DNA of 64,000 nt from a virus. Location: positions 30,788 to 94,787 of the IMG/VR virus record IMGVR_UViG_3300023242_000004. The stretch is one strand, 5' to 3'. Position 1 is the stretch's first letter. The number at the start of each line of letters is the position of its first letter. The translations under genes were made by a program, and so were the position numbers. The notes beneath the pieces were generated by a model, which saw only the letters and a list, made by a program, of their open reading frames with translations, had not been told where the DNA came from and made no database searches. This document shows positions 19,261-46,600 of this stretch, in pieces.

Positions 19261-22200
19261 TTATGTAGAAATATTAATAGTGTTTGAAATACAACCTACA
19301 TTATCTGTTATGGTTATTGTAACAATAACCGTTGTTGCTGGTAGACTATTTGGTTGTGGCACATTTCCAATTATTTCTTGTTGATTTGTAATTATTACTG
19401 GTAATGTTGATGGATTTATAATCAACGCACCTTCTGAATTAATCCCTTCAACTGAATAACTTACAGTATAAGGTACTCTTAATGTTTGCCCTAACAATAA
19501 ATGACTAACATTAAACTTAAACTTAACTAAATTTGGACCTATTAATTGTATAGGTGCGTTAACACCTGTAGTGTTAATACTTAACAAGTTTGGTGGTAAT
19601 TTAATATCGTAAACACTTATATAAACTTCTTGACTAAAACATGTTTTAGCCGCATTAGTCATCCTAAAAATAATTTCATCTTGTAAAACTGATGCTGGTA
19701 TTATTATACTTAACGGTGTTGTCGAATTAACATAAATATTACTCGGTGTTGGTTGCCATAATGGTGAACCGTCAGGCATTTGTTGCCCATCAATAACATA
19801 ATCTAAATAAACTATTGAACCAACAGAATAAGGGCTTGTAACAAATAAATCAATATGGTAATTATTTGGGTCACACTGTTTTTCCAAATCTTGTAGTGAG
19901 GCTGATTCAATTTCCATGAATGGGTTCATATAACTCAAAACACTAGTTGAAAAAGCTTGCGTACCCATAATGTCAACTACTTCTGTAGTGTATGTGTCAG
20001 CAGATAAACTCAGCAAATTAAAACCAGAACCAACGTAACCGTTAGGTGATGTTGTATTTGCTGAATATGGTGGTGTACCCCCACTAACATTTATATTTAT
20101 AATACCCGTATTTTGACCATAACATAAAATTTGTGTAACTGTAGGTGTTAATGTAATTGGTGTCGCACCATTTAAAACTAAATTAACTAAATACACTGTT
20201 TCAATACCATCGGTTACTGTCATTGTATAACCGTTTCCAGTGAATGCAGTAAAAGTTGTATTTACACCAACATCAACCGCCAGACCTTGTATAATATGTG
20301 GTACAGAAGTAATATTAAGCGGACCGCTAGCAACAGCACCATTACTATTATAAAGAGTATAACTATAAATACTACCAACACCACCAATAATTGACATGAT
20401 TGTTATTTCACCATTAGAAGCAGCAGCTGTTGTGCAATCTTGACTAACGAAAGCATCAACCGATAATGGTGGTGGGCCAGAAATTATAAATGTTTGTGTT
20501 ACTGGCGAACCAAAGTTATCGTTACCTGTTATCGTATAAATACCAATTGGTAGATTATTTAAAGTTCCAGTTGGTTGTGTGTTATTTTGACCAACAATTG
20601 TTATATTAGTATAACCATTAACACCACTAGTTGTAGCAGTAAATGGTGCGTCACCGCCAATAAATGTGAATGTTGCCGTACCATTTGTTGTTTCATTAGT
20701 TGTAGTTGGTGTTGTAGATATTTGAATCACAAATTCCAAATCATTTTTTGCTGTGCAAGCGGTAAAAAATCTTTGATTCATAACCTCTAACCCACTTTTA
20801 CCAGGAAGTATTCCAAAGTAAAAATAATACGAATGTTTTGGTTGACCAAAATTATATTGACCTACTTGACTATTACCCATCGAATAATTCCTAAAATTAA
20901 CGTAATCCTGTCCATTTTCAACTGGACTGGTAAAATCGTATACACTCTCATCAAATAAATTAAAATTACTGGTATAAGGTAATTGTAAATTCCATGAATT
21001 AACTGTTGAATTTAACCCTAAGAAAACATCTCTAAACCATTTTGGTCTATCAACGTCATCAGCATCTAAATCTCTTAAACCAATTACACCATCAGTTTCA
21101 TTATTAACACCTCTATATTCATCAATTTCAACACCAAACTCACATAAATGTCTAATGTTCATACATTGCCTAGTATTTACATGTAAACCTAAACAATTTA
21201 TACTAAAAAATAAACCAAGTGTGTTTCCATCAACATCACATTGTCCAGTAGTTAACACTGTTGTGTTATCCGCTGCAAGTTCTTGAATAACTGGTGGTAT
21301 TTTATATGTTGTAGGTATTAAATGCTCTTGTAGTTTTGGTACACCTTGCCAGTCGCAATTAAATACCGCACCTAAATTAATAATATCCGTAGCGAATAAC
21401 TTAAAACTAGCGTTATGTGTTGACGCAGCATAGAAGAACTCATTGTTTTTCTTTTTAATTAAACCTTCTCTAAGTAAAACATTTCTATTTTCAAATTGTT
21501 GGTCCCCGCTATCACCTCTAAAACATGTATCTAATAGGTGACTACTCCTACAATTATTATCTGGTACACCATTTTTGTTTCCATCAACAGTCGTACTATC
21601 CGTATAGTTTTTAAAATCACTGCAATCATATTCGCAGAATCTTTCTGAATTTCTACGTCTAATTTTGTATTTTAATAAAAAAGTATATAATGAGCCATTT
21701 ATCCAATCATTATAAAAATCAAACTCAAAAAGATTTAATTTTTGCGCCATTTGAAAAGCCACACAATCATCCAAACCACATAAGTCACCGAAACCACCAT
21801 GACCAAAACTATCACCATCATAATATTTTGGTGTGTTACCTTGGTCAACCGAAGAATCAAAAGCCGCACCACCATCTAAACCACCTTTGCTACACCCAGG
21901 AGCAAAAATAGATGGGTTATCATCTGCTGGGCATTGAATATAAATACAAGGTATGTAATTAATTGGGTTAATTATTAATTTACACAAAAAACTAAGAAAA
22001 CCAAAAATTTTAACCCCCAATATTTTTCTTTTACTAGCATCACATAAAGCACCCACCAAAAAATTCCATCCTTCAATTAAAAGATTTATAACTTTTAACA
22101 CCACATTAATTAAAGGTATAATAAGCGAATTAATTATATAAATTAAAAAACCTACAATTTTAATAACCAAACAAATAATAAAAAAAATAGGTGATGTTTG

Positions 22201-23574
22201 GGTTCCTACTCTATTAAAAGGAAACGGTGTTTTATCACCAGCACAGGCATCAACATCTTTAATACCCATCATATTTCTAGTGCGTGAACCACCAGAATTA
22301 AACGGTGTAATCTGTTGGAACCTAGAAATAAAATTACTAACAGAATATATTTTATTCCAATATAAATCTCTAAAACTACTTTCTTTAGTTTTTTCACCAA
22401 ACTCATAGTCAATTTCATTTTCGTTGTTTGGGTTGTTTGGTACCAAATATTTAGCCCTAGTTCTAAGTCTACCTTCACCACCTGTTTGGTCCATACCAAT
22501 TTTAAATCGAACACTAGCTCTAGTTGGTATACCTTTGTTTGGTTCATCAGACAATACCAAAACACCAAATTCATCGGTAACCATATAATCTAAATTCATT
22601 GGGATTTGATAAGCCCAAGCACCGTTTTCATCAATAACTCTTCCACCCTCAACATCAAATCTTTCGATAGTGCCGTCAAGTGTTTCTCTAATCATTTCAA
22701 TAGTACCTTCATTTGCAACTTGTTCGCAAAGGTTACCTAAATCTTTTCTAGGTCGACAATTTTTATTAACACTATTTTTATCTTGGTCACCAAATATACT
22801 ACCCATAAATATTGCAGATGGGGTTATGGAGTAGTTTAAATCAATATCTACCCTAGTTATACCAATCTCACACGTATCGATATCCCCCCAAAAAGGCTGT
22901 ACGTTTACACCAATATTAGATGATTTTACTTGAATTAATTTATCTAAATTAGTATCACCTTTAAATTTTGTTGGTGAATCGAAAAATTTCAATGGAGTCC
23001 CTTGGCTAATGCTATCATAAGGTCTTTGAGACGCAATACCTATATCGGAAATATCCGCATCAACATGTAGAGTATATGTACCAACTGGTACCCCAAAAAC
23101 CATAAAATCACCAGCATAATTTGTTGTTGTAGTAAATTTATAGTATTTACAATAAACACCTAACATTTCTGGGTTATCTAATACTTCTCTTTTATTTGGA
23201 AAAGTACCAATTGGTGTAAAACAGTTATTATCTGTTTCAGAAGTTCTAGGTAGCAAATTATACCTAATACCATCACTATCTCTATCCGTGATAATCTCAT
23301 AAGGATATAACCCTTTAATATTTGGGTCATTTATATCAATATCATCAATAGGTATGAAAACACTAACTCTAGCATTTGGAACACCAAAACCACTGTTAAT
23401 TATTACTCTACCAGTAATCACACCGTAATCAGAACAAAAATTTCTATACGCTTCTTCTTGCGAAATCTTTAGTGAAAGAACTTCAATAAAGTCAAACTCT
23501 TGTTCTAGTTTTACTTTTAAATATTTATCGGTACCATTAGGTGTAGTCCTAATTCTAACAGTGTTGTTAGGCAT
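19261..23574 (-). CDS. Large structural protein with a hydrophobic segment and SprB-like repeats
   Basis: N-terminal carboxypeptidase-regulatory-like GVITGRV..GVPNARVSV; hydrophobic IFFIICLVIKIVGFLIYII; CYGQNTGIININVSGGTPPY repeat. Confidence 0.55.
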   Translation of the reverse strand: MPNNTVRIRTTPNGTDKYLKVKLEQEFDFIEVLSLKISQEEAYRNFCSDYGVITGRVIINSGFGVPNARVSVFIPIDDIDINDPNIKGLYPYEIITDRDSDGIRYNLLPRTSETDNNCFTPIGTFPNKREVLDNPEMLGVYCKYYKFTTTTNYAGDFMVFGVPVGTYTLHVDADISDIGIASQRPYDSISQGTPLKFFDSPTKFKGDTNLDKLIQVKSSNIGVNVQPFWGDIDTCEIGITRVDIDLNYSITPSAIFMGSIFGDQDKNSVNKNCRPRKDLGNLCEQVANEGTIEMIRETLDGTIERFDVEGGRVIDENGAWAYQIPMNLDYMVTDEFGVLVLSDEPNKGIPTRASVRFKIGMDQTGGEGRLRTRAKYLVPNNPNNENEIDYEFGEKTKESSFRDLYWNKIYSVSNFISRFQQITPFNSGGSRTRNMMGIKDVDACAGDKTPFPFNRVGTQTSPIFFIICLVIKIVGFLIYIINSLIIPLINVVLKVINLLIEGWNFLVGALCDASKRKILGVKIFGFLSFLCKLIINPINYIPCIYIQCPADDNPSIFAPGCSKGGLDGGAAFDSSVDQGNTPKYYDGDSFGHGGFGDLCGLDDCVAFQMAQKLNLFEFDFYNDWINGSLYTFLLKYKIRRRNSERFCEYDCSDFKNYTDSTTVDGNKNGVPDNNCRSSHLLDTCFRGDSGDQQFENRNVLLREGLIKKKNNEFFYAASTHNASFKLFATDIINLGAVFNCDWQGVPKLQEHLIPTTYKIPPVIQELAADNTTVLTTGQCDVDGNTLGLFFSINCLGLHVNTRQCMNIRHLCEFGVEIDEYRGVNNETDGVIGLRDLDADDVDRPKWFRDVFLGLNSTVNSWNLQLPYTSNFNLFDESVYDFTSPVENGQDYVNFRNYSMGNSQVGQYNFGQPKHSYYFYFGILPGKSGLEVMNQRFFTACTAKNDLEFVIQISTTPTTTNETTNGTATFTFIGGDAPFTATTSGVNGYTNITIVGQNNTQPTGTLNNLPIGIYTITGNDNFGSPVTQTFIISGPPPLSVDAFVSQDCTTAAASNGEITIMSIIGGVGSIYSYTLYNSNGAVASGPLNITSVPHIIQGLAVDVGVNTTFTAFTGNGYTMTVTDGIETVYLVNLVLNGATPITLTPTVTQILCYGQNTGIININVSGGTPPYSANTTSPNGYVGSGFNLLSLSADTYTTEVVDIMGTQAFSTSVLSYMNPFMEIESASLQDLEKQCDPNNYHIDLFVTSPYSVGSIVYLDYVIDGQQMPDGSPLWQPTPSNIYVNSTTPLSIIIPASVLQDEIIFRMTNAAKTCFSQEVYISVYDIKLPPNLLSINTTGVNAPIQLIGPNLVKFKFNVSHLLLGQTLRVPYTVSYSVEGINSEGALIINPSTLPVIITNQQEIIGNVPQPNSLPATTVIVTITITDNVGCISNTINIST

Positions 23575-25819: not shown

Positions 25820-26206
25820 TTATAGTTTTACTACTACTATGTCTGATGTTGTAAAAACAGCATCTGTTATTGTATATTTTAAAGTGAACACAGCAGCGTA
25901 TTCGCTTTCAGTTGATTCTTCAACCAAAATTTCATCCAATTGTAATTTTGGTAAATAAAGTTTTACTACTGATTTAATTTCTTCTTTAACACCATTTAAT
26001 GTCATCCCATCTTGTGGTTCAAAGATAAATTTTAATAAATCAGTACCAAAGTTTGGTTTATAAAGTCTTTGACCTTTTCTAGTCAATATTATATGTAGAA
26101 GGTCGGCTTTTATCGCTTGACTATCTTCATCATTTAAATCTAAGAAAAAACCTTTGTTACTATTCTTAAAAGGATAATTTATATTTATGTATTTACCGTT
26201 TGCCAT
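25820..26206 (-). CDS. Baseplate sheath initiator (gp25 / GPW-like)
   Basis: IKADLLHIILTRKGQRLYKPNFGTDLLKFIFEP. Confidence 0.9.
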   Translation of the reverse strand: MANGKYININYPFKNSNKGFFLDLNDEDSQAIKADLLHIILTRKGQRLYKPNFGTDLLKFIFEPQDGMTLNGVKEEIKSVVKLYLPKLQLDEILVEESTESEYAAVFTLKYTITDAVFTTSDIVVVKL

Positions 26207-26265
26207 AATTGTGTTTATTTGATAAATATCATACTAAACAATTTTTATAAGTAAATATGGGAAAT

Positions 26266-26292
26266 AAAAAAAGGGTCCCTATTGGACCCTTT
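26266..26292 (-). terminator. Rho-independent terminator after nrdA part 3
   Basis: AAAGGGTCC-aatag-GGACCCTTT followed by a T run. Confidence 0.8.
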
Positions 26293-26309
26293 AATTTGTT
26301 TATCTTTTA

Positions 26310-26927
26310 TTAACTTGAACAACCCACGCACTCAAATTGACTCTCGGTAGGTTTTTCTACTTGTTTTTGTTTTGTCATATCAATAGCTAAATGTTTAGCT
26401 TTCATATCAACGGACTCACTCCTTAAATAATACTGACCAGTTTTAAGTCCTAATTTCCAAGACAAATTATGTGATGTAGTTAATTTACCAACAGTAGGTG
26501 TACTAAAGAAAATATTAAGACTTTGCGATTGGTCAATGAATGGTGCTCTATCAGCAGACATTTCGATTAACGCTTTTTGGGAAATTTCCCAAACTGTTTT
26601 ATACCTTTCTTTCATCTCTGAACTAATAACTGGTATGTTTTGAACACTACCATTATTTTTTATCAATTCACTAAGAATTTCTCTATTCCATAAACCTTCT
26701 GATTCTAAATCTCTAACTAGGTGTTTGTTTACCATAGCGAATTCACCACCAGTCACTCTTCGAACATAAAGATTTGAAGTGAACGGTTCGAAAGCTTCGT
26801 TTGAACCAATTACACGAGCAGAATTATGACTAACACAACCATTTTCCATTATATAATGATTCACGTTTGGTACTTCAATATCCCACGTAGGTTTTATATC
26901 ACCCTTAGTTATTTTTTTTATTTTCAT
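26310..26927 (-). CDS. nrdA: RNR class Ia alpha subunit, part 3 (35-aa IntC-2 + C-terminal extein)
   Basis: MKIKKI...TWDIEV...VSHN|SARVIGSNEAFEP...FIDQSQSLN...LKTGQYYLR...CVGCSS. Confidence 0.92.
   Translation of the reverse strand: MKIKKITKGDIKPTWDIEVPNVNHYIMENGCVSHNSARVIGSNEAFEPFTSNLYVRRVTGGEFAMVNKHLVRDLESEGLWNREILSELIKNNGSVQNIPVISSEMKERYKTVWEISQKALIEMSADRAPFIDQSQSLNIFFSTPTVGKLTTSHNLSWKLGLKTGQYYLRSESVDMKAKHLAIDMTKQKQVEKPTESQFECVGCSS
26823..26927 (-). other. Split intein 2, C-half (IntC)
   Basis: Block F WDIEV and block G HN followed by Ser+1. Confidence 0.9.
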
Positions 26928-27260
26928 AATTTATTCTTTAAAATTTTATTTATTTTTTCTTTATTTATTTTTTCAGAATCCGAAGACCATAATTCTATAT
27001 AGTTACCCCATTTTAAATTACCATCGTGTTCACCCCATTTAATTATAAACATTTCTAAGGTGTGTTTACTTTTATCACAAAATTCTTGGTATTTTAATGG
27101 ACCATAAATTTCGCCATGATTAAAAATAAAACTCTCTAAAGTCCTACCACACTTTAATTTATGTAACCTTACTTTTTCAATAGATTCATTATTCATTAAA
27201 CCTTTTTTTAACCAATACTCAATTTTGAATGGTGATGGTTTGTTAGATATTTTTATATGT
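26924..27260 (-). pseudogene. Internally deleted homing endonuclease relic between IntN-2 and IntC-2
   Basis: The frame stays open upstream of ATG 27196 (SPFKIEYWLKKGL). It has two LExFI..(H/W)GE..G..K(Y/W) repeats like the 373-aa HEG, lacks a nuclease core, and ends EKINKEK like that HEG. Confidence 0.7.
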
Positions 27261-27295
27261 TTTATTAACTACGTACACAACACTTAAACGACCTA

Positions 27296-28282
27296 CTACT
27301 TTTCAAATATATTTAATATATCGTCCGTGGCTACCAAATCAATTACTTCAACCCATATTCCATCATTACCTCTTTTTACTTTGAATTTATGATTTTCAGT
27401 TGCTTCAAAAATTGACCCATCTTCCATTTCTATTTTATAGACAACAGAATGTGCGTTATACTTTATTTTATTAACTTCTTCATACCCATTAATTGTTTTA
27501 ACATTAAAAGCTTTTAAATCTAACCATTGTTGTAGATTCATACTTTCTAATTGTTCCCAATCAATATTGTTTTCTTCTAATATATCTTTAAATGATTTAA
27601 CACCACTTTCAGTATGAATCCTAGTATCAATAACTTGACAACTAGCTGTTGGTGGGCATGTTGTAACTAAAGAGTTTCTAACACCATATTTTTTAATGTC
27701 TTTTCTTAACCCTTTCCAATCATGCATACCAGATAAATTATCTTCAGTCAACCCCCACATTTGCCATTGGAAAATACCTTCAGAAATTGGTGAACCCTCG
27801 TAACCATCATACGTTAACCCAGTTTTTTTAGCTAAAGCACAAGATTCACTTAAAGCATTAAAATAAATCGTTTCAAATATGTCTTTATTTAATTGTCTAG
27901 CTATTTCACCAGTGAACGGTAATTTTAATATAGCAAACACATCTGCTAAACCTTGTATACCAATACCTAATGCTCTTTGTTCTAAACCACCTTTTCTACC
28001 TTCTGGTGTTGAATATTCGTTAACCTCTAAAGCTATGTTTAATGATTTTGTTATTGAACGTGCTACTTTACCCAATCCTATGAAGTCGTAAACTCCATCT
28101 ATAATATATTTTTGAACTGGGATGCTAGTAAGCGTACAAATAGCTGTTGTTTCAGCGTTGGTCGTCTCCATAATTTCCGAACAATTATGTACTAATATAT
28201 CATTACCAAAAAAATTATGGTTATCCTCAACAGTAATATCGTATACTGGTATTTTTTCGTTTAATTTTTCTATTTTTATCAT
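27296..28282 (-). CDS. nrdA: RNR class Ia alpha subunit, part 2 (IntC-1 + middle extein + IntN-2)
   Basis: MIKIEK...VYDITVEDNHNFFGNDILVHN|CSEI...ICTLTSI...RALGIGIQGLAD...GVRNSLVTTCPPTAS|CQVIDT...ATENHKF. Confidence 0.92.
   Translation of the reverse strand: MIKIEKLNEKIPVYDITVEDNHNFFGNDILVHNCSEIMETTNAETTAICTLTSIPVQKYIIDGVYDFIGLGKVARSITKSLNIALEVNEYSTPEGRKGGLEQRALGIGIQGLADVFAILKLPFTGEIARQLNKDIFETIYFNALSESCALAKKTGLTYDGYEGSPISEGIFQWQMWGLTEDNLSGMHDWKGLRKDIKKYGVRNSLVTTCPPTASCQVIDTRIHTESGVKSFKDILEENNIDWEQLESMNLQQWLDLKAFNVKTINGYEEVNKIKYNAHSVVYKIEMEDGSIFEATENHKFKVKRGNDGIWVEVIDLVATDDILNIFEK
27299..27640 (-). other. Split intein 2, N-half (114 aa)
   Basis: Cys1 (CQVIDT) and block B ATENHKF, ending at a stop codon. 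Confidence 0.9.
28184..28282 (-). other. Split intein 1, C-half (33 aa)
   Basis: VYDITV, HNFF, VHN followed by Cys+1. Confidence 0.92.
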
Positions 28283-28287
28283 TTATT

Positions 28288-29034
28288 TTAATTTTTAAAT
28301 TTCCATTTAAAACCACCAGCAGTGGTTCCTTGTTTACAAGCTCTACTAATTCCAGACTTATGTTTAATATTATTCTTTTCAGCTGCTTCAACAGTAGTTA
28401 AGTAAGTGTCAATTTCTTCACCATTTACACTCATTTTAACAACAGTTTTAGCGTTTGGGTTATTTTCTCTAGTATTATTAATAGACATCTTTTTTAAAGT
28501 TTCATCATTAGCTTTTCTACCTAAGTTCCAATGATTACCATTTATTTTAGCTTTATGTGATGGTCGTTCTTTTAAAGATAACCCATACATATTGTTATTA
28601 ACACCAGTAGCGTTTAACCTATGTTTTTCACGTATTTCTTCTTTATTTGGGTTATTAGTAAACGTATCACCACCTAACCCACCTTTAGTTAAATTGGTTA
28701 GAATACCACTTTTATTATGTCTAAAACCCATTATATCTATTAATAAACTTTCAATATCATAAGCGGTTTGTTCTTCTAACCCTTCAACTATTTTTATTAT
28801 TATGGGTTCTAACCCATTTTTTAATATTTGATTAATAACATTTAACTTATAAATATTATTTGTTAAATCTTTATTTTGTTCTTTTATTAACTTTAAATGT
28901 TTTTCTAACCTATTAGAACTATCTTTACCCTTTCCAATATAAAAAGGTTTATTTTTAAAAATATAATTTCCAAAATTATACTCACCAATTTCTCTAGGGT
29001 CCAAGTAAGCGTACACATAATATTTTTTTTCCAT
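28288..29034 (-). CDS. Free-standing GIY-YIG homing endonuclease with NUMOD domains (likely start MEKKYY, 29034)
   Basis: YYVYAYLDPR...PFYIGKGK...RLEKH...E...LTN..GG.GG; NUMOD3-like NNNMYG; C-terminal NUMOD1 ISRAC...TAGGFKWKF. Confidence 0.85.
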   Translation of the reverse strand: MEKKYYVYAYLDPREIGEYNFGNYIFKNKPFYIGKGKDSSNRLEKHLKLIKEQNKDLTNNIYKLNVINQILKNGLEPIIIKIVEGLEEQTAYDIESLLIDIMGFRHNKSGILTNLTKGGLGGDTFTNNPNKEEIREKHRLNATGVNNNMYGLSLKERPSHKAKINGNHWNLGRKANDETLKKMSINNTRENNPNAKTVVKMSVNGEEIDTYLTTVEAAEKNNIKHKSGISRACKQGTTAGGFKWKFKN

Positions 29035-29075
29035 TGTGATTTCCATTATGTATATATACATAATGGAAATCACAA
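29034..29075. promoter_or_regulatory. Perfect 42-bp palindrome over the endonuclease translation start
   Basis: TTGTGATTTCCATTATGTATATATACATAATGGAAATCACAA is its own reverse complement. Confidence 0.8.
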
Positions 29076-29080
29076 AAAGA

Positions 29081-30655
29081 TTAAAATATTTCTAATACAT
29101 CAGTCTCAACTAAATCTTTAGCTAACACATATCCTCTATTTTTTGTGAATATTTGGTGTTCTGGTGTGCAAATAATATGTTTACCAGTTTCCTCATCAGT
29201 TATCTTTAAAACATCAGCTGACTCATTCATTAAGGCAGCATTTGTTATCTTTTTATATTCTGGTTTATTTGTTTCAATATTATAACTTAATACTTCTATA
29301 CCGTGTTCTACATTAAAATCGTTAACAACATCGGAAATATTAAAATCAACTTCCTTACCATGATATTTTGTTTTAATAATTGTTTTACCATCAACACACA
29401 AATTACTAGAGTGAATCATACCAATATTTTTTTGGTTGGATTTCTCATTAACGTGGTCTTTAAAGCACATATATGGCATACCAGTTTCAATTTGTGATTC
29501 CAAAATTTTAAGCCATAAATCATGTGCTTTAATTTTAGTACCAATACCCATCTCTACGGCCTTATTATATTCTTCCTCATACTCTTTACCATAAATCTCA
29601 TAAAATGGCTTTAAACCAGCTTCTTTTATGTCGTTTGGGCAGAATAAATACCAAGCATCATTTGTTTCAACAGCTCTCATAAAATTATTTGGAATCCATA
29701 GTGCTGAAAATAAGTCACGAGCCCTTAAAGTATCATCACCTGTCTTTTTTCTTATATCTAAAACGTCGAAAACATCTTTATGCCATGGTTCAATATAAAC
29801 AGCACAAGAGCCAGGTCTTTTACCTCTTTGGTTCCAGAATCTAAGTGTTTCATTAACAACTTTAAGGTATTTTAAAATACCACCAGCTTTTCCGTTTGAA
29901 TTACCCACATTACTTTCTTTTGAACGAATATTTGAAATAGCTAAACCTATACCTTCTGCTTTTGATGATGATATAGCAATTCTACCTAGGATATCTAATA
30001 ACCCTTCTGTTGAATCATCTGGAACAATCGATAAATTACATGAGGCAATTTGACCAATTGTTGTTCCTATGTTCATTTTTATAGGCGTTGCTGGGCTTTC
30101 TTTTTGATTACTTATGTAATTGTATTTTTCAATAAAATCTTCAGCGTTTTCTGTCACCATAAGAGCGACCCTAACATACATTTGTTGTGGTCTTTCTACT
30201 ATCACGCCATCTTTTGTTTTTAAAAGATATATGTCTTTAAGAGAACACCAACCAAAATAATCAAAATTAAAATCTCTAGAATAATCGATTGTTGATTCGA
30301 TTAACTCTATATTTTCTTTAACTTTATTAAAATACACATCATTCAATAAACCTAAATTATACATTTTTTTTATTGCCTTCATGAACGAGTCATCGGTTTC
30401 TTTATGTAATTTAGTTATGGATATATTTGCAGCCAATTTTGAATAGTCTGGATGATTCATAGCTAATGATTCAGATACGACTGAAATCAAATCATCTAAC
30501 TCATTTGTTGTCATATCATCAGCAATACCTTGCGTAACCTTTATAAACACCTCGTCAGCGTTAACTTTTAACCCTTCGGATTGTTTTTTTATTCTGGTAA
30601 GAATTTTATTTGGGTTAAAATCTATTTTATTACCGTTTCTTTTTATTACTTGCAT
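29081..30655 (-). CDS. nrdA: RNR class Ia alpha subunit, part 1 (ATP cone + N-extein + IntN-1)
   Basis: VIKRNG ATP cone, ERPQQM, SPATP, ASC, QRGKRPG, ETGMPY, HSSNL|CVDGKT. Confidence 0.95.
   Translation of the reverse strand: MQVIKRNGNKIDFNPNKILTRIKKQSEGLKVNADEVFIKVTQGIADDMTTNELDDLISVVSESLAMNHPDYSKLAANISITKLHKETDDSFMKAIKKMYNLGLLNDVYFNKVKENIELIESTIDYSRDFNFDYFGWCSLKDIYLLKTKDGVIVERPQQMYVRVALMVTENAEDFIEKYNYISNQKESPATPIKMNIGTTIGQIASCNLSIVPDDSTEGLLDILGRIAISSSKAEGIGLAISNIRSKESNVGNSNGKAGGILKYLKVVNETLRFWNQRGKRPGSCAVYIEPWHKDVFDVLDIRKKTGDDTLRARDLFSALWIPNNFMRAVETNDAWYLFCPNDIKEAGLKPFYEIYGKEYEEEYNKAVEMGIGTKIKAHDLWLKILESQIETGMPYMCFKDHVNEKSNQKNIGMIHSSNLCVDGKTIIKTKYHGKEVDFNISDVVNDFNVEHGIEVLSYNIETNKPEYKKITNAALMNESADVLKITDEETGKHIICTPEHQIFTKNRGYVLAKDLVETDVLEIF
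29084..29398 (-). other. Split intein 1, N-half (105 aa), NrdA-2/NrdJ-1-like
   Basis: Cys1 and block B ICTPEHQIFTKNRGYV, ending at a stop codon. Confidence 0.92.
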
Positions 30656-30672
30656 ACTTTTATTTATTAATG

Positions 30673-31626
30673 TTAAATTTCTTCATCAAATGAGATTGGC
30701 CCACTTAAATCAGCTGATTTATATTCCGTTGAACGACCCTCGAAAAAATTTGCCTTTGTTTTTAAAGCAATTTGATTCATAAACTCAAAAGGGTTTTTAC
30801 TATTAAATTCTTTATCGCACTCTAATTGTTGTAATAAACCATCAACAACAAACTCTAAATATTGTTTCATAACATTAGAGTTCATACCAATAAGCGAAAC
30901 TGGTAATGATTCAGTAATAAATTCTTTCTCAATCTCTAAAGCAGATAAGAAAATTTCTTTGATTCTTTCTTTAGATGGTTTATCAACTATATGATTATTT
31001 AATAAATGAATAGCAAAATCAGCATGCATAGCTTCATCTCTAGAAATGAACGTATTTGAATCACATAAACCTGGCATTAAACCTCTAGATTTTAAATAAA
31101 AAATACTACAGAAAGAACCAGAAAAGAAAATACCCTCCACAGCAACAAACGCTATTAATCTCTCAACAAAAGATTCAGATTCAATCCATTTTAACGCCCA
31201 TTCAGCTTTTTTCTTAACTGGTGGCATGTATTCAATAGCGTTAAAACATTCTTGTCTTTCTTTAGTATCTTTAATGTATGTATCGATAAGTAAAGAATAC
31301 ATTTGACTATGGATATTTTCCATCATAATTTGAAAACCGTAAAAAAACTTTGCTTCGGTGTATTGAACCTCATTTAAGAAATTTATAGCTAGATTTTCGT
31401 TCACTATACCGTCACTGGCAGCAAAGAAGGCTAACACGTTTTTAACGAAAAATCTTTCTTTTTCAGTTAGTTTATTGTTCCAGTGGTCAATGTCTTTAGA
31501 TAAATCAACTTCTTGAGTTGTCCACATAGCACTTAATTGTGTTTCATACAAATCCCAAATATCTTGGTGTTCAATAGGAAAAAGCACAAATCTGTTTGGG
31601 TTGTTAATTAATATTGGTTCGTTCAT
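30673..31626 (-). CDS. nrdB: RNR class Ia beta subunit
   Basis: [42 protein letters not shown]. Confidence 0.96.
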
Positions 31627-31661
31627 TTTTTTATTAAATTATTATTTTATTTTATTTTGTA

Positions 31662-32150
31662 TTATTGTTGAGTTGGGCTATTTAATATAGTGTTTCTGTT
31701 TTGAGCGGCCGCTAATACTGTATTAACTCTGTTTTGGTTTACTTCGTCTTTATCCATCTTATGTTCCGTTTGACTTCTAGCGCCTTTACTTTTACCCATA
31801 TCTATTTGAATTTTTGCGTTATCAAATCTTATATCTTGAAAGATAATACCATCTTTACCAAATCTAGATTTAAGTATCGCCATTGTCGCAGTACCAGCTT
31901 CTTTTTGGTCTAAGTTTTTCGCTATAGACACAATAAAGTGACCAATTTGACCTTTTTTAATTGAACCACCTATTTGGTTAGCTTCAACCACATCAGCCGA
32001 AATAGAGCTGTTGTGTGTGTAAATATCGTTACCATAAAACATATGTGTGTCTTCTACGGTGATATCAATAGTGTCTTCCTCACCAATTAACTCAATTGAT
32101 TCGATTTCATCCAAATCAAAATTACTTAAATCTAAATTGTGTTTTACCAT
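31662..32150 (-). CDS. DnaB/gp41 helicase, part 2 (IntC + C-extein; likely start MVKHN, 32150)
   Basis: EEDTIDITVEDTHMFYGNDIYTHN|SSISADVV...ILKSRFG. Confidence 0.9.
   Translation of the reverse strand: MVKHNLDLSNFDLDEIESIELIGEEDTIDITVEDTHMFYGNDIYTHNSSISADVVEANQIGGSIKKGQIGHFIVSIAKNLDQKEAGTATMAILKSRFGKDGIIFQDIRFDNAKIQIDMGKSKGARSQTEHKMDKDEVNQNRVNTVLAAAQNRNTILNSPTQQ
32010..32150 (-). other. Split intein 3, C-half (gp41-8-like, acidic)
   Basis: DEIESIELIGEEDTIDITV...THN followed by Ser+1. Confidence 0.9.
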
Positions 32151-32155
32151 TTTTT

Positions 32156-33277
32156 TTATTTTAAAAAGTTTAAACATTTCTCTAATGTTTTTTCTTTATT
32201 TATTTTGTATTCACTTTCTTTAATCCTTAATATTTTATAACCCTTACCAATTAAAAACTCATCTCTTACCATATCTTTAGATTTTTGTTCTGGTTTAGAA
32301 TGCCAATAATCACCATCAAACTCAATTATTTTATCACCACATTTGAAATCGACAAGTATAGTAAAAATATTTTTTATGTTAACGTAGAAATACTCTTCAC
32401 CATTTAATTCCGCAAATTTAACATTAATTTTATCAATATCTGTTAATTTATTAAATAATAACCAAAATAATTCCTGTGATATCTTACTATAATAGACACC
32501 ACTTCTAAATTGTTTATCTAAAAACTCAATAAATTTTATTTTACCAACTTTACAACCATATCTATCGATAAATGATTGTAATGACGTTTTTGACATAGTG
32601 GTACAATATTCTAACCATTTAACTTTACCATGTTTATCACCATATAAATCAATAAAATATTTTTCACTAAATCGATATTTTTGTTGGTTGTTACGTTTTA
32701 TCCATTTTTGATAACCAACTTTAACCCCATCTCTATCTTGATATTCAACTAAAGTTCTACCATTTCTATATGGTTTAATTTTCCTACGTTCTTTTTGGGT
32801 CTCAATTTTCTTAGTTAAACGTTCTTGCCATTTTTTAGTACCTTCAGTCTCACCATATCTTTCAATGCAAGCTTCAAATCCCCAAGGTGTTTTTGAATTA
32901 ACTAAATATTCAGTATATTTATTAACCCCATCTTCTTTACCATATTTTTTAATATAACCATCTAACGTATGTGCAAATTTAACATATAATTCTGATTTAA
33001 CCAATTCAACATTTTCTTTACCATACCTAATTTCTAAAGCATATTCAGAAGCGATATCATTTTTTAAAACGTTGATGATGATATTAAGTCTTTCTAACCA
33101 ATCACCATCAACATTAAATTTAATAAAATCATGTATATTTTTCATTCTATTCTTAATTCTTACATTATCGTAAACTTCTAATATTTTACTTATTTCAGTC
33201 TTTTGACATTCTGTAACTTTAGAAATATCAATATCCCCAAATATTTTTCTACTTAATAATTTTTCTATAGTTATCAT
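32156..33277 (-). CDS. Free-standing Vsr-like (DUF559-type) homing endonuclease with N-terminal repeats
   Basis: Repeats (K/R)YGxxxGxxK(W/Y); C-terminal VDF..IIEFDGDYWH...KD..RD...GYKILRIKE. Confidence 0.85.
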   Translation of the reverse strand: MITIEKLLSRKIFGDIDISKVTECQKTEISKILEVYDNVRIKNRMKNIHDFIKFNVDGDWLERLNIIINVLKNDIASEYALEIRYGKENVELVKSELYVKFAHTLDGYIKKYGKEDGVNKYTEYLVNSKTPWGFEACIERYGETEGTKKWQERLTKKIETQKERRKIKPYRNGRTLVEYQDRDGVKVGYQKWIKRNNQQKYRFSEKYFIDLYGDKHGKVKWLEYCTTMSKTSLQSFIDRYGCKVGKIKFIEFLDKQFRSGVYYSKISQELFWLLFNKLTDIDKINVKFAELNGEEYFYVNIKNIFTILVDFKCGDKIIEFDGDYWHSKPEQKSKDMVRDEFLIGKGYKILRIKESEYKINKEKTLEKCLNFLK

Positions 33278-33280
33278 ATC

Positions 33281-33302
33281 TTTTCATATAAATATATGAA
33301 AA
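33281..33302 (-). promoter_or_regulatory. Hairpin containing the TATTTATA motif, 3 nt before the endonuclease ATG
   Basis: TTTTCATATA-TT-TATATGAAAA. Confidence 0.7.
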
Positions 33303-33336
33303 TCACATAAAAAGTAAACAGCAATAGAAAAAAAAA

Positions 33337-34665
33337 TTATTTTTTGGTTAATAAACTATCACCAACTGTTAACCCACTCTCAATAGATAAAAACTTACCA
33401 TCAGAAGTTGGGAAAAAATGTTTTTTAGCTACTTTAATTTCCTTACCCGATTTTAATTTAATTTTATAAACTGGTTGTTTCGCAATAGGGAAAATATGTG
33501 ATATTGTTTTATATCCATCATGAGTCAAAATTTCGTCACCTAATACAGCATCTTTTATCTCAATAAGTCCATTATTTTTCGTAACTATCTTAGTATCAAG
33601 TGAAACACATCTATTACCTTGAACAGCCGTCCATCCAGCTATATCTAGTTCAGATAAAAGCGTTTCAAATTGTCGCATAACACTACCCTCACCAGCGTTA
33701 ATATCATCAAATTTTTTCGATGGTTCGACACAATCAATATAATCCAATAAAATTATATCTGGTCTAAAACCTTGTGCTATCAACTTTCTAATATATTGTC
33801 TAATCATTGGAATTGTAGTACCATCGCTAGAAAACTTTTTAAGTTTAAGATTTTCATGAGGTAATTTTGCAGCAATTTCAAATATTTCTTCTTTGTGTAA
33901 ACTTAAACTATTTAGTTCATACCCAGAAGAACAAGCTAAATGTTTTCTTTGGATAACTTTTGGGTTGTCTTCGAAAAATATTTGTAAAACTTTATAACCA
34001 TCTGCCATTGCGGTGTTAGCTAATTTTGTAATCATGGTTGTTTTTCCAACACCGAATGGTGCTAATATTACAGCTAACTCACCTCTGGATAACCCACCAT
34101 CCATGACTTCATCTAAACCTTTTATCCCAGTAGCAATTGGTTTTCTAAAATCATCAACTAAAACATGTTCTATACCATCAAAAACGTTAAAACCATCATC
34201 TTTAGCATCACCATGCTCAAGTGCTTTTCTTATAATAGCTTCAACTTGTTCGTAATCTTCAAGGTTACCTCGTTCGATGATTTTATTAACTTGCATCATC
34301 GATTTTCTCATTTCTTGTTGTTTACAAAACCTCATCGCCATATCTTGGACTTTCAAGGTATCGTTCAAATCAGCTTCTTGAACTTTACGTAGTTGGCTGA
34401 TAACGTATTTTCTTTGGTATTCGTCCTTAACATCTTCTAGTAACCTGAATTCAAGACTACCAACATCTGGGACAATATCATCGGTAACCTTTGCATCTTT
34501 TATTGTTGCAACTATTACTCGTAAATACTGGTCTTCAAAGTAGTTTGGGTCAACGATATCTAATATAGAATTTGCAAACTTTCTATCCGTTAAAAATTGC
34601 GCTATAAGCCTTAATTGGTAGTCGTGTCCTAAATAACCAAAACTATTTTTATCTATTTTTGTCAT
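33337..34665 (-). CDS. DnaB/gp41 replicative helicase, part 1 (N-extein + IntN)
   Basis: Walker A APFGVGKTT, Walker B ILLDYID, WTAVQGNR|CVSLDT. Confidence 0.93.
   Translation of the reverse strand: MTKIDKNSFGYLGHDYQLRLIAQFLTDRKFANSILDIVDPNYFEDQYLRVIVATIKDAKVTDDIVPDVGSLEFRLLEDVKDEYQRKYVISQLRKVQEADLNDTLKVQDMAMRFCKQQEMRKSMMQVNKIIERGNLEDYEQVEAIIRKALEHGDAKDDGFNVFDGIEHVLVDDFRKPIATGIKGLDEVMDGGLSRGELAVILAPFGVGKTTMITKLANTAMADGYKVLQIFFEDNPKVIQRKHLACSSGYELNSLSLHKEEIFEIAAKLPHENLKLKKFSSDGTTIPMIRQYIRKLIAQGFRPDIILLDYIDCVEPSKKFDDINAGEGSVMRQFETLLSELDIAGWTAVQGNRCVSLDTKIVTKNNGLIEIKDAVLGDEILTHDGYKTISHIFPIAKQPVYKIKLKSGKEIKVAKKHFFPTSDGKFLSIESGLTVGDSLLTKK
33340..33609 (-). other. Split intein 3, N-half (90 aa, gp41-8-like, basic)
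   Basis: CVSLDT...KQPVYKIKLKSGKEIKVAKKHFFPT. Confidence 0.9.
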
Positions 34666-34717
34666 TAAAAATTTCTATTTTTTCACTTGTGTTATAATAA
34701 ATATCTAATAATAATTA

Positions 34718-35194
34718 TTAAACTGTCACCAGTGAATAATTTTTTCTACTAGTTGTTTGTCTAATCTCAGACATAATTTCTGGGATAACTTCTCTAATAT
34801 CAACATTAACTCTAGGGTTTAAAGTAAAAAATTCGTTTGAGAATTGTGTTGCGACAACAACTCTTTTATCGACCTTAAATTCAAATTGAAACTCGTCACC
34901 TTTTTTGGCTGGTGCCCTATACGATTCATCTGTTTGAACAAAGTATGGGTTATAATTTTCCCAAAGGTACTGGATTGATTTTCTTTTTAAATATTTAGGT
35001 ATAATACCTGACGTACCAGCAATTTCATCAATCATTTCTTTAATATCTAAAGAATTGATAGAGTCCTCATTAAAATCAAAAATATGGAAATATCTTTGAC
35101 AAACGATATTATTGTTAACATAAAGTACGAATTCAAATCTTTGTTCTTCGATTTTCTTTGTAATTGGTGCGGTTGTTTTTTCTTTTGCGTTCAT
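34718..35194 (-). CDS. Hypothetical protein
   Basis: 158-aa ORF in the replication operon. Confidence 0.65.
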   Translation of the reverse strand: MNAKEKTTAPITKKIEEQRFEFVLYVNNNIVCQRYFHIFDFNEDSINSLDIKEMIDEIAGTSGIIPKYLKRKSIQYLWENYNPYFVQTDESYRAPAKKGDEFQFEFKVDKRVVVATQFSNEFFTLNPRVNVDIREVIPEIMSEIRQTTSRKNYSLVTV

Positions 35195-40656: not shown

Positions 40657-43600
40657 TTATATCCAAGTATTCATAGGTTCGTCTATATCTACATTAAAAC
40701 CATAAGATTTTAAAGTTAGTGCCGTAGATAAGGCATAATTACTAGGGTTATTTTTATCCCCCCATGGAGCGTATTGGTTAATGTATTGTCTTAACGATGG
40801 GCTGGTATTTTTAGTATACGCATAACTACCTAAATCTTGGTATTTAACACCACCATTTTTAAACAATTTATTTGTATCTGCTACATAACAATCAGCTAAA
40901 GTATTTGACCAACTCCAACCAGTTTTTGACCTTCCAAGTAAATATTCACTATAAGCTTCATAACCTTCTTGCCACGTACTAAAAGTTTTAAACCCTTTAT
41001 TACTAGAAGGTCGTAAATTTCCTGGGTTTTTTCTACTTGGTGCGCTTCCGAACCCTTCATCAATAGCTTGAGACATAGCAACAACACCCCTTTTGGTTAA
41101 TTTACTACCATCCCAAAGAGTAGGTACTAGTTTTAACCCAGCTAAGGAACCTACACAATCTCTAGTACTTGGACAATTGTTCTTACCAGCTAATATTTTA
41201 TCTATAGATGATTTATTACCACTATTTTGAGCAAAACCTTTATTACCTATAGCTGGACAAGATGTGTTGTTATTAGACATAGCCCCAGTACCAGTTCCAA
41301 TTAATTTTTTTTCATTATAGTATTTGTTATCGGTTTTTTTAACACATAAAACATAACCCAGAACATCTGATGTATCGTCAATATAACCATTTTTTAAATT
41401 TAATTCAAGTAAAGAAATACTGTCACCAATATTTCCACCAATTAAGTAAGCTTTTTCACCGAACACAGAGTAAACAACTTCTGAGTGACTTGCGTTATTG
41501 CCACCGACTCTTGGTTTGTTAAAAATATCACCTACTTCAACTTTTATTTTCAACCCAGCTTTTAAAGGAAATACCTCATAACCAGCAACGCCATTCATTG
41601 CTGACTCTATATATACTTGATGTGAAGCTGACCTTGGAAAATTTTTATCAGCAGCTAACATTATATAAGAAATAAACACACCACTCCATGGTTCAGTATT
41701 ATTAGCGAAATTTTCAGCAGAGATTCCAGGTGTAGCTTTAGCGTATTCCTTTAAAAATTGAACGCCATCAGATTCATCTAAATTACCATCATCCCAATTA
41801 AGTTTTTCTTGTTGGGCTGTAACCCCTAAACTATTTTTTTCAATAGCAGTTAAGGTACCTATGATTATTTTATCTTCAGGTAAATTTGCCATTAAATCTG
41901 ATTTAAATGAAGTAGTAAAATGATTGGAAAAATTACCACCGCTAGAACCACCACCACCACTATTTCCACCTGTAATCCCTAAATTATCAATAAATGACAT
42001 ATATAAATCCAATGCAGTAATTAAAGGTGTTTCCGCATACCTAATCCTAACACCTGTGAAATTTGTTGACATGTGATTTGGTTTTATTGAGTGTTTGACT
42101 CTTGTAATCATATATGCACCATGAAACATAGGTATATTATCTAATTGAAAATACATCATAGGTTGTATCATAGCGTTACCCATCATTTCAATTTGGGCCG
42201 TATAGCTTCTTACTGAATAAACATTGTAAAGATTTTGACCAGCAATACTTCTATTATTTGTACCAGCTTTTTGAGATATATCATCTTGTATTTGTAGCGA
42301 TTCATCTGTTTCAGTAAACTCACTTTGGTCCAAACTAATATCTTTAAATAAATTTTGGTTTTGTTGACTATATCTTACAACAAAAGCACCAACAGCGTCC
42401 TCATAAGGCTCATCATCTGTTTTAAAATCATCTGGGATACCAGGATTAATATTTACACTTTTTTCATCATATAAACATCTAAGGTCAAAACCATCGTTAG
42501 GGTAATCAGAAGTACTATAATCCAAATGATTTGATTTACCACCAACATACGCACAAACAAATGAAGGACCACAAGTTCCAACAGAAATAGCTTCTGTGTA
42601 ACTACCATAGGGTTGAAATATCGCTTCTACTTCTGCTTTATCTTTAAAATTAATAAAACTAGGTAACGCAATAAAATCAAAATTATTATCTGATAATAAT
42701 TGACTAATAGCACCATAAGACGAAGTGTTAGGGTTTTCTAATAAAAAATCATTAATTGGTAACGGATTAATATATAATTTATCACCAATATCTTTAAAAG
42801 ACCTACTAATAAACCTAAAACTATCAATTAATTTTGGTGATGTTTTACTTTTATATTGAATAGCTAATTTAGAATCGGTATTACTTCTATTATTTGCACC
42901 GCATTGAAAAATGATATTATTTATATCTGTAGTACCAGCTAACCACTTATCATGTACATTTTTACATGTTTTATATAATATTAGTTTTATTGTGTCCTCA
43001 TTCGCAGTGCCAAAAATTTCTTGTTGTAATTGTTTATCTTCATTTGTCGGTGAATAAGAGTCCGAGGTGTCTTTTAAACGCTTAGTTAATGCATCAAAAT
43101 ATATTTTAAAAGTTGCCTCGTAAACATTTATTCCTTCTCTTAGGTTTGTTTTATACTCACCCTTAGTACCATAGTCATCTTTTTTTGGACCTCTCCAGAT
43201 ATAATAGTTATTATTAGCTATTATAAGTGGTTCAACCAAAGCTTTTATTAATGTTGTAACCGAATCGTTAGTACTATAACCATCTTTTAATTCTAACCTA
43301 AAATTATCTTTTTCGCCTAAAATAGTTTGCGGTATTATTACCACATATTTATCTTCGTTTTTTAAACCATTAATTTGGGAAAGGTCACTATATGAATTGT
43401 TTAGTAAAGTTTCAAAACCAATACCATCTCCATCCCAAATTTCTAGACCATTTTTAATTGCATCCCATGATATTGAGTTATCATCGCCATTAACAAAATT
43501 AAAAAATATTTTTTTAAATTCAATTTTAACTTGTTTTGGTAACGTACTTAATAAATCTGTTTGGCTTATTTCCACAGGTAGTTCGGTTTTTTTACTTGTT

Positions 43601-46600
43601 TTATAAAGACTTACAATATAATCAGTTTTCTCTATTTTTTTATAATTACCCCAAATTATAGGGTCGTTACTACCAGTACCACCACCAGTTTGTTTTCCTC
43701 CTATTAATTCTGGGTCATCAGTTGACAACCTCCAGAGAATACTACCAATATAAGCACACCAAAGTCTTGGTACTGCTACAAAACCACCACGTATGGTAAA
43801 TATATTTCTAATATAATTAATAACACCTCCTGATGTTTGGTTAATACCGTTACCCACAAAAGGTAATGTGTGTAAAAATAACATCGCTTTAGAGTATTCG
43901 CTAGTTTGATTATAATATAAGGTAGACCCAAATAAACTAACACCTTTAGATTCACTATTTATAATGAAATCTGGTTCAGATTCATTTGCTGCACCAAGTT
44001 GGAAAGGTAATAATAGAAAAGGAAAAGTTAAGTCAGAAGTATTACCAGAATAATATTCTAATAATAATTCTCTATTACTACCCCATTTATTATGAAATTT
44101 TTTACCACCAATTTCATAATTAATAGTTTGATTATTTTCTGGTATGTTTTGTGGTTTTTTACTTAAATCAAATATAGAACTATTACCACCAGAGGCTTTT
44201 CTGGTGTATGTTAAACCTGGTCTTTTATCTCGGTAAAAAGCAAAACTTAAAGGGCCTTGGTTATCATCACCAAAATCCATTAAAGAAAATTCTTGCATAC
44301 CTAAAGGACCAGCAAATACGTTAAACCCAGCGTCTGATACTTGCTGAGGTGTTAAAGTTACATTATCTTTTAAAATACTTAATTTTAAAGGTGAAATTTT
44401 TGTATCCACCCCTTCAACAGGGTATAATTGTTTTATTTTGTTATAATCATTTAATGTTAATATTTTAACATATGTACCACCATCTAAAGATTTATCATAT
44501 TGGTCTGTCTCACCGCTTTTACCAAAAGAAGAGGAATAATTTGTTAAAAATAAATTACCACTTTCGCTATCTTTTTGTAAATTAGTATAGTTTTTAGTTG
44601 AGTTTACACCCCCACTAACATCACCCCATGTTTTATTGTTAAACTCTTTTTGTATTGGGATAATTTTAAAATCATTTGAGGAGTTATAGATATAATCATA
44701 AGAATAATAAGGTTTTACTTGTTGTCCATCAAAAGTTGATACTTTATTTACCACGTTTCTAGATACCGTATTTATAGTACCAGTAACGTTAGCTACAGTA
44801 CTAGTACTTATAAGACTTATAGTTTGTTTTAAATTTTTATTTGTTACCCCTCTAACAATAGCGTCTGCTTCAGCTATCGCCATTGATTGAATTTCTTTAT
44901 CGCTTAACGAATCTGGGTCGTTAGTATAACCTAAAAAAGTCATACCTCTTATTAACATAAGCCTCATAACATCTTGATTACTTAGCAATTCAACCCTAGA
45001 ATAAGGTTCTGTATTTATAAAAATACTAGTATCTATAGGTGAAATCGGAAACCAAGTGGTTTGGTTTTGTGTTATGTCATCAAGTACATCGTCAGTTGCT
45101 TTTTGAGCAATTAAAAACGCATTTAATAAATCATCAATAAAAACTAATTCATCAACGTGGTGTGGTTTTTCTAACAGACGAGCTTTACCTAAATATTTAT
45201 CAACATATGTCTTAGTTTTTTCATCTCTTTCTCTATAATCTGGCCAAGCATAAAACTCTTTTGTTTCTAATTTTTCTTTTTTTATATCCGAATTTATTAT
45301 TTCAACACCAAATGTTGATTCTAATTGTGAAATTCTTCTTTCATTACCTTTATTTTCCGCTGTTTGAGAAACAGTGTAAATACTTTCCATAAATACCTCA
45401 ATTGCATTTGTGAAAATTTCAATTATTCTTCTAACTGTTGGGTCGAAACCTAAAGATTCGGCAACGTTTTCTTTTAATTCTAACGCTAATTCTTTTTTAC
45501 TAGAGTTAATTTGTTCATTTACAACTAATCTAGTAGCGTTTATTTTTTCATATAAACCATTGAAATTATATATATCTAATTTAACAGTATTATTAATTTC
45601 ATAATCTTTTAAATAGTCAAATATTTCTTTTTTTAATTTTTCTAAATCGGTTGGTGAACCTAAAGTGTTGGATAAAGTTTTTTGGTCAAATGAACCATTT
45701 TTATTTGGGTCAAACATTTCTTTAACAACTGACGTATATAGACCTTTATTCGTATCTACTTTGTCAAAAAATAAAAAATAATTTTCATCTAATTTACCAC
45801 CAGAATCCGTTTCATTAAATTCGTTTATTCTTACAACTACCGATGCTTTATACTCCTCTATATTCGCAGTTTGTTCATCTGTTAACGGGTTATTTTTTTT
45901 TACAACAAAAAAATGATTATCTTTTACATCACTGTTTAAATCTAAATTACGACCTAACACATTAATTAACGCCTCAATATTATTTAATTTTTCAATAGCG
46001 TCATTACCTCTACCAAAAGAATCAGCGTTTTTTGAGTTTTGGGCTATTTTTTCAACACCACCATTTATTTTCTGGATATTTTCCATTAAAGTTACCAATT
46101 TGATTACTTCGTAACCACGCTCCTCGTTATATCTTTCATGTATTTTTTTACCGATTGTTGTAAATGGTATTGCTTTAAGATAACCTAATAACATATCTGA
46201 TAACATAGCGTAAGTATAACCAATAAATTGGCAAGAAATTTCAAAATTACCTGTTTTTGAATTAAATTTTGAATTAAATTTAAGCATATGTAAACAATAT
46301 GTAACTGGTTTACCGTAATAACCTTTAATTTCTAACTCAAATTTTGGGTATGGTAATTGAAAAAAAGTAGAATACTTGTTTGCTGTATTATTACCCGAAT
46401 TATTTTGTTCATTTTGGAAAATAGCACTACCTCTAACATCAATAAAATCAATGTTAACCATTGGGGCGAAAGAAGAATTAAAATCAATGTCAATATTTGT
46501 AATACCTAAAGCCTCATCATTACTACTATCTGAACCCAAAGAAGTTAAATCGGTATAATTAGTTGTTAATACTTTTCTACCAGAAACTTCGCTTCCCTCA

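Follow-up and report, generated by a model that had tools for sequence, protein, structure and literature searches.

A 64,000-nucleotide stretch of DNA from a virus (positions 30,788 to 94,787 of IMG/VR record IMGVR_UViG_3300023242_000004; hereafter the window) carries nrdA, the gene for the alpha subunit of ribonucleotide reductase (RNR), in three separate open reading frames (ORFs) on its minus strand. It is highly probable that these encode three polypeptides that would be trans-spliced by two split inteins into a normal NrdA, one gene having been invaded by two homing elements. The source record is a 94.8-kb viral contig, estimated to be 27% complete, with myovirus tail sheath and baseplate genes, and the source of the three-piece nrdA is a large uncultured tailed phage.

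One NrdA in three pieces

Downstream of nrdB lie five minus-strand ORFs of 524, 261, 328, 90 and 205 amino acids (aa). The first, third and fifth are the nrdA pieces, and the other two occupy the gaps between them (gap 1 and gap 2). Boundaries between exteins and intein halves (IntN, N-terminal; IntC, C-terminal) were set by a script cutting at motifs. The original prediction, made from the letters of the window, had given coordinates, ORF sizes, segment lengths and a total of 770 aa for the joined exteins E1, E2 and E3 (419 + 181 + 170), all of which proved exact. The features are:

30673..31626, minus strand: nrdB (RNR small subunit; PF00268, E 4.8e-104), directly upstream of nrdA piece 1 in the same orientation
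30655-29081, minus strand: nrdA piece 1 ORF, 524 aa, with its own ATG and stop
29399..30655, minus strand: E1, N-extein of piece 1, 419 aa; ATP-cone, all-alpha domain and first part of the barrel; C-terminus HSSNL
29084..29398, minus strand: IntN1, 105 aa; Cys start (CVDGKT), block B TPEH; stop at 29081-29083
29073-28288, minus strand: GIY-YIG ORF, 261 aa
28282-27296, minus strand: nrdA piece 2 ORF, 328 aa, with its own ATG and stop
28184..28282, minus strand: IntC1, 33 aa; ILVHN end; ATG 5 nt past the endonuclease stop
27641..28183, minus strand: E2, middle extein, 181 aa; CSEI start, PPTAS end; its +1 residue is the thiyl-radical Cys
27299..27640, minus strand: IntN2, 114 aa; Cys start (CQVIDT), block B TENH; stop at 27296-27298
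27196-26924, minus strand: gap-2 ORF, 90 aa
26927-26310, minus strand: nrdA piece 3 ORF, 205 aa, with its own ATG and stop
26823..26927, minus strand: IntC2, 35 aa; GCVSHN end, followed by Ser
26313..26822, minus strand: E3, C-extein, 170 aa; SARVIG start (Ser +1); YY pair and C-terminal CxxC; stop at 26310-26312

The Pfam RNR barrel profile is matched in order by the three pieces, at profile positions 1-213 (piece 1), 197-459 (piece 2) and 393-523 (piece 3), and the ATP-cone and RNR all-alpha domains are found in piece 1. The pieces are consecutive, because their alignments with human RRM1 (3hnc) cover residues 1-431, 421-611 and 605-763, respectively; this and the barrel order bear out the claim of one NrdA in three successive parts. 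The catalytic motifs are complete across the pieces—the N-x-C-x-E loop, the YY pair and the C-terminal CxxC—and these, the three domains and the nrdB partner are the marks of a class Ia enzyme. The nearest relatives are eukaryote-type class Ia enzymes and the NrdA proteins of Tenacibaculum and Cellulophaga phages. These comparisons show that the three ORFs together encode, in order, a single class Ia NrdA.

Uninterrupted nrdA genes, with products of 775-788 aa that are 83-89% identical to the joined exteins, were found in four viral contigs (L005-L008). The junctions had been predicted as SSNL/CSEI and PPTAS/SARVIG (a slash marks the joint), and the intact proteins align without a gap through both, as HSSNL/CSEIME and PPTAS/SARVIG. 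Such gapless read-through at two junctions is far more than chance would give, and by alignment these four genes are empty-site alleles.

Intein halves, gaps and the proposed splicing

At both breaks the upstream piece ends in an in-frame IntN and the downstream piece starts with the matching IntC, as in published fractured genes. Class 1 intein residues are present throughout (intein 1, C...TPEH...VHN/C; intein 2, C...TENH...SHN/S), and both joints are textbook at the +1 position, with Cys for intein 1 and Ser for intein 2. A profile check of the four halves against PF14890 (Intein_splicing) matched three of them—IntN1, with a score below the cut-off, at piece-1 residues 438-521; IntC1, above it, at profile positions 124-155 (piece 2 scoring 42.2 bits against a cut-off of 35.8); and IntN2 in a profile search of the genome—and missed IntC2. 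IntN1 also matches the solved NrdJ-1 split intein 8ubs (E 2.8e-11) and IntC1 the gp41-1 intein 6qaz (E 3.4e-5), while the C-terminal 34 residues of the Mxe GyrA intein gave an end-to-end alignment with IntC2, a weak match (E 0.085). That IntN2 and IntC2 are halves of one Hint domain follows from their homologues, which make up a contiguous mini-intein, roughly 150 aa long, at this site in three metagenome proteins (P0044, P0052 and P0053) and in the Campylobacter phages CPt10 and IBB_35, the two halves being joined there by 3-6 residues; the GenBank intein annotation of IBB_35 covers exactly this stretch. In relatives that have a contiguous mini-intein at this site, its C-terminal part shares 64-74% identity with IntC2. 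As had been proposed, the two NrdA inteins differ from each other, IntN1 and IntN2 being 26-30% identical and IntC1 and IntC2 34-38%. We infer that both breaks would be active class-1 split inteins.

The search with the middle piece returned 2385 proteins, and the layout counts rest on 124 of those sequences. Sixty-four of the 124 related metagenome proteins are IntC-extein-IntN middle pieces, 325-375 aa long where complete, with exteins 41-100% identical to that of the window; judged from these, the three-piece layout is widespread rather than unique and is common in phage metagenomes. All 64 middle pieces have VHN and then Cys or Ser, 63/64 have the IntN2 Cys1, and the S-H-N of IntC2 with Ser or Thr at +1 is invariant in 7/7 C-pieces.

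Phage Aeh1, reportedly described by Friedrich in 2007, carries the arrangement nrdA-a / mobE / nrdA-b. There, as in the window, a free-standing homing endonuclease gene breaks nrdA and the pieces are translated separately; unlike in the window, where intein halves stand at both breaks, Aeh1 has no intein, and its pieces stay separate and associate non-covalently into an enzyme that is functional without ligation (Crona 2010, PMC3045599; PMC2677866). By analogy, the intein halves of the window could be docking domains only, with no peptide bond formed, and some relatives (phage KP13-7, described below, and loci L009 and L011) do have an extra break without intein halves. Docking-only relics, however, could lose Cys1, the terminal Asn and the +1 nucleophile, whereas all of the splicing-chemistry residues are kept across the 64 diverged middle pieces and the seven C-pieces; moreover, if intein 1 stayed unspliced, it would be attached to the radical Cys. 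We regard non-covalent assembly as improbable.

The gaps and the flanks of the three pieces contain four further features:

28288..29073, minus strand: free-standing GIY-YIG homing endonuclease gene in gap 1 (PF22945, E 3.5e-12, plus NUMOD3); longest ORF 261 aa
29034..29075, minus strand: perfect 19-bp hairpin between the piece-1 stop and the endonuclease gene, spanning the in-frame start codons of the latter
26924..27196, minus strand: relic of a Vsr-like homing endonuclease in gap 2, 90 aa, nuclease domain gone
26270..26292, minus strand: terminator-like hairpin and T-run just past piece 3

The GIY-YIG gene is intact, its likely start is the ATG at 29034, and homologues occupy the same gap in three relatives (L009, L011 and L015). 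The hairpin has a minimum free energy of -32.8 kcal/mol (z -7.7; 0/200 shuffles as good) and probably throttles translation of the endonuclease; hairpins upstream of endonuclease ORFs are known from published fractured genes (PMC2677866). A Pfam search of the 90-aa ORF of gap 2 gave no match. It matches residues ~143-237 of gap-2 proteins of 414-424 aa in L010, L011, L012 and L014 (E 3e-12 to 7e-8), which have weak DUF559/MTES_1575 (Vsr-like) matches near their C-termini, and the final 25 aa of the ORF correspond to the C-terminus of the protein from L012. Because it thus corresponds to the middle and the C-terminus of these endonucleases, the ORF is an internal-deletion relic without a nuclease domain, and gap 2 retains only this relic; the published gp41-7 fractured locus also lacks an endonuclease (PMC2677866). 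The stop of the relic overlaps the piece-3 ATG (ATGA) and the piece-2 ATG lies 5 nt after the GIY-YIG stop, a spacing that suggests translational coupling. We note that the relic keeps its 3' end and this overlap despite the lost nuclease domain, and it is possibly retained for such coupling. The hairpin and T-run after piece 3 likely mark the end of the transcription unit; the gap-1 hairpin, the tight gene spacing and the terminator agree with the published fractured-gene layout (PMC2677866).

Phage group I introns often contain GIY-YIG genes, and the gaps might be removed as introns carrying endonuclease genes, or the stops might be assembly or sequencing artefacts. No Rfam intron was matched at E up to 1 in 26000-35000, nor did Rfam at gathering score return anything on L003, L004, L009 and L011. 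The sole Rfam match in 26000-35000 at that threshold, a miRNA on the hairpin, was judged spurious. Both gaps are flanked by in-frame intein halves, which would be superfluous for an intron, and identical piece boundaries and lengths recur in independent assemblies (64 clusters of 325-375 aa; L004, L009 and L011). This recurrence indicates that the layout is not an assembly error, and an artefact or an intron is a very remote prospect.

Under the splicing reading, two different homing elements, each made up of a split intein and a free-standing endonuclease gene, would have entered a phage class Ia nrdA, one at each of two active-site motifs. The three polypeptides would be translated separately, IntN1 of piece 1 would pair with IntC1 of piece 2 and IntN2 of piece 2 with IntC2 of piece 3, and two class-1 trans-splicing reactions would yield the normal 770-aa NrdA with NLCSE and PPTAS-S rebuilt. 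The radical Cys would serve as the +1 nucleophile of intein 1; its identity with the Cys of NLCxE was correctly predicted and is already known for NrdA loci (PMC2677866). The two pairs presumably do not cross-react, which is needed because the middle piece has an IntC at its head and an IntN at its tail. The hairpin would limit translation of the endonuclease, and the gap-2 relic may persist because translation of piece 3 is coupled to it.

Four points weigh against this reading. The PF14890 score of IntN1 in piece 1 (28.3 bits) is under the 35.8-bit cut-off; a Pfam search of piece 3 gave no intein match for IntC2; comparison of intein 2 with solved inteins gave weak matches alone (E about 0.08); and ligation is read from sequence alone. 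The complementary halves with intact splicing residues nevertheless support the proposal of a natural three-fragment double trans-splicing reaction.

Occupied and empty sites in relatives

Relatives present every combination of occupied and empty sites, as fits homing elements. No intein is present in L005-L008 and most other loci. Site 1 alone is occupied in L015 and in 30 proteins about 384 aa long, one of which, P0013, is 92% identical, and site 2 alone, with an intact Vsr-like gene, in L012 and L014. Both sites are split in the window locus and in L004, L009 and L011, and a split site 1 is combined with a contiguous site 2 in three proteins (P0044, P0052 and P0053) and in the Campylobacter phages.

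The three-piece nrdA of L004 (3401-6633) has neither endonuclease gene, and its pieces overlap or abut. Its exteins are 80-86% identical to those of the window, and break 1 holds a different intein (IntN 41% identical) one residue further on (SSNLC/SEIM), so that Ser takes the +1 position and the N-extein retains the radical Cys. A one-residue shift among relatives is also seen at site 2 (PVA/C versus TAS/C). Shifted sites and endonuclease loss are the expected traces of selfish elements that home and decay repeatedly. A further break in E1, after about residue 276 and with about 1.3 kb between the parts, is seen in L009:809-4074 and L011:631-4031; the downstream part carries no recognisable IntC, and no Rfam intron was found there at gathering score.

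The ratio of nonsynonymous to synonymous substitution rates (dN/dS) of the exteins is 0.07-0.18 against the three-piece locus L004 and 0.02-0.10 against the intact alleles, and that of the intein halves against L004 is 0.25 (IntC1), 0.24 (IntN2) and 0.18 (IntC2); dS is near saturation, which makes these values rough and counts as a further point against the splicing reading. The ratios indicate that the exteins and the intein halves are under purifying selection. They bear on the view that nrdA is a decaying pseudogene broken by selfish elements, which is how Dwivedi et al. read the interrupted CPt10 gene (PMC3653736) and with which the degraded gap-2 endonuclease of the window would agree. 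Against decay stand the extein dN/dS of 0.02-0.18, the full length of the three exteins with N, C, E, the YY pair and the C-terminal CxxC in place, and the retention of the three-piece layout at 41-79% identity, and we consider a pseudogene extremely improbable.

Known systems, a neighboring helicase and implications

Dassa et al. 2009 (Dassa, London, Stoddard, Schueler-Furman and Pietrokovski) described 26 fractured loci, each broken once, and all seven of their fractured NrdA loci (NrdA-1 to NrdA-7) are inserted directly N-terminal to the thiyl-radical Cys of NLCxE (PMC2677866). Break 1 of the window resembles these in its insertion point, the GIY-YIG gene in the gap, the hairpin upstream, the tight spacing and the phage setting, and intein 1 is of this known fractured-gene type (PMC2677866). 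The window nrdA is likewise a conserved enzyme gene broken into pieces that lie on one strand in the original order. It differs in having two breaks and three pieces rather than a single break and two pieces: a second, unrelated split intein lies 181 residues downstream and creates a middle piece with an IntC head and an IntN tail. Its NrdA is also of the eukaryote-like class Ia type, in contrast to the cyanophage type of the 2009 set.

The nrdA genes of the Campylobacter phages CPt10 and vB_CcoM-IBB_35 (PMC3322345, PMC3653736) carry inteins at both of the sites occupied in the window. At site 1 the intein is split and free-standing ORFs lie in the gap; at site 2 a homologue of IntN2 and IntC2 (33-39% identity) forms a contiguous mini-intein, which leaves the gene in two pieces instead of the three of the window. 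These genes were termed 'two inteins' or decaying/pseudogene, and split inteins were not discussed (Carvalho 2012, PMC3322345; Dwivedi 2013, PMC3653736). An analogous case is the cultured jumbo Klebsiella phage KP13-7 (OP617745, Alcyoneusvirus; L003:977-6507), which has in order an IntN, a GIY-YIG gene, an IntC-extein-IntN piece, an HNH gene and an IntC-extein piece, at corresponding sites. An additional break in KP13-7 lacks intein halves and contains a small HNH-like ORF, which brings the nrdA pieces to four; the insertion points in this phage are one residue off (NLC/C and PGE/T), the host gene is an E. coli-like NrdA, and the inner nrdA pieces are annotated as hypothetical proteins. Phage phiKp_21 is similar to KP13-7, and RaK2, K64-1 and Muenster are uninterrupted there; the papers on RaK2, CBB and MIJ3 make no mention of such nrdA genes.

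Engineered tandem trans-splicing (PMC7090010, PMC7210297) resembles the window in that two orthogonal split inteins join three fragments, the middle one with an IntC head and an IntN tail. The engineered systems are man-made, with inteins taken from different genes, whereas the pair in the window occurs together in one natural gene. Three-fragment ligation was met in the literature searched only as engineering, and the same literature, with many subscription journals outside its coverage, yielded no paper reporting two split inteins in a single natural gene. The original prediction that this is not a described natural system met no contrary paper there, and as far as the search reaches, the two-split-intein, three-piece design stands as not previously described.

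Just upstream of the RNR genes the window carries a second fractured gene:

31662..34665, minus strand: two-piece fractured DnaB/gp41-like helicase
34665-33337, minus strand: helicase N-piece, 442 aa, ending with a 90-aa IntN (QGNR/C)
33277-32156, minus strand: helicase Vsr-like endonuclease gene (PF18741/DUF559), with a 22-nt overlap with the C-piece
32177-31662, minus strand: helicase C-piece, 171 aa, starting with an IntC that ends THN/SS

This helicase corresponds to the gp41 type with a Vsr-like endonuclease of Dassa 2009 (PMC2677866). Over the last 30 residues, the helicase IntC and IntC1 share 57% identity. The first strand of the helicase IntC is acidic (charge -6), and those of IntC1 (+1) and IntC2 (+4) are Lys-rich; conversely, the helicase IntN is net positive and IntN1 and IntN2 are acidic. 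This polarity mirrors the charge reversal reported by Dassa et al. between gp41 and NrdA/NrdJ inteins (PMC2677866). Intein 1 and intein 2 are not separated by charge.

Two other observations concern the rest of the contig. Upstream of the window, a weak Intein_splicing match of 22.8 bits (C1:24364-24681; L084:999-3809) in a 936-aa ORF with no Pfam family at E 0.001 was dropped. Three very large ORFs of 2059, 1444 and 1437 aa, with no PHROG match at E 1e-5, lie in the window at 40657-46836, 47159-51493 and 19261-23574 (minus strand), respectively.

A more far-reaching proposal is that the two split inteins co-evolved in nature as an orthogonal pair that ligates three fragments of an essential enzyme, and that assembly of the deoxynucleoside triphosphate supply is conditional—for example on redox state or on a fixed joining order—rather than a matter of neutral parasitism, with the gap-2 relic kept as a translational coupler for piece 3. 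The idea of conditional assembly draws on the Cys residues involved: the +1 nucleophile of intein 1 is the radical Cys, and Cys is the first residue of both inteins. We nevertheless hold the proposal to be speculative and rather unlikely.

In the natural split-intein systems described to date, a gene is cut at a single point. If the double splicing is true, the two simultaneous, non-cross-reacting reactions would be a natural 'tandem trans-splicing' of the kind that engineers build by hand, and such loci would offer ready-made intein pairs that must function together in one cell, with a third pair, that of the helicase, in the same gene cluster. The population of alleles—empty, occupied at site 1, at site 2 or at both, with endonucleases intact, decayed or lost, and with one-residue shifts—would compactly document the homing cycle at two active-site motifs of one enzyme. 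Annotation pipelines label such pieces hypothetical proteins or pseudogenes, as in KP13-7 and CPt10, and phage nucleotide metabolism would be under-called as a result.

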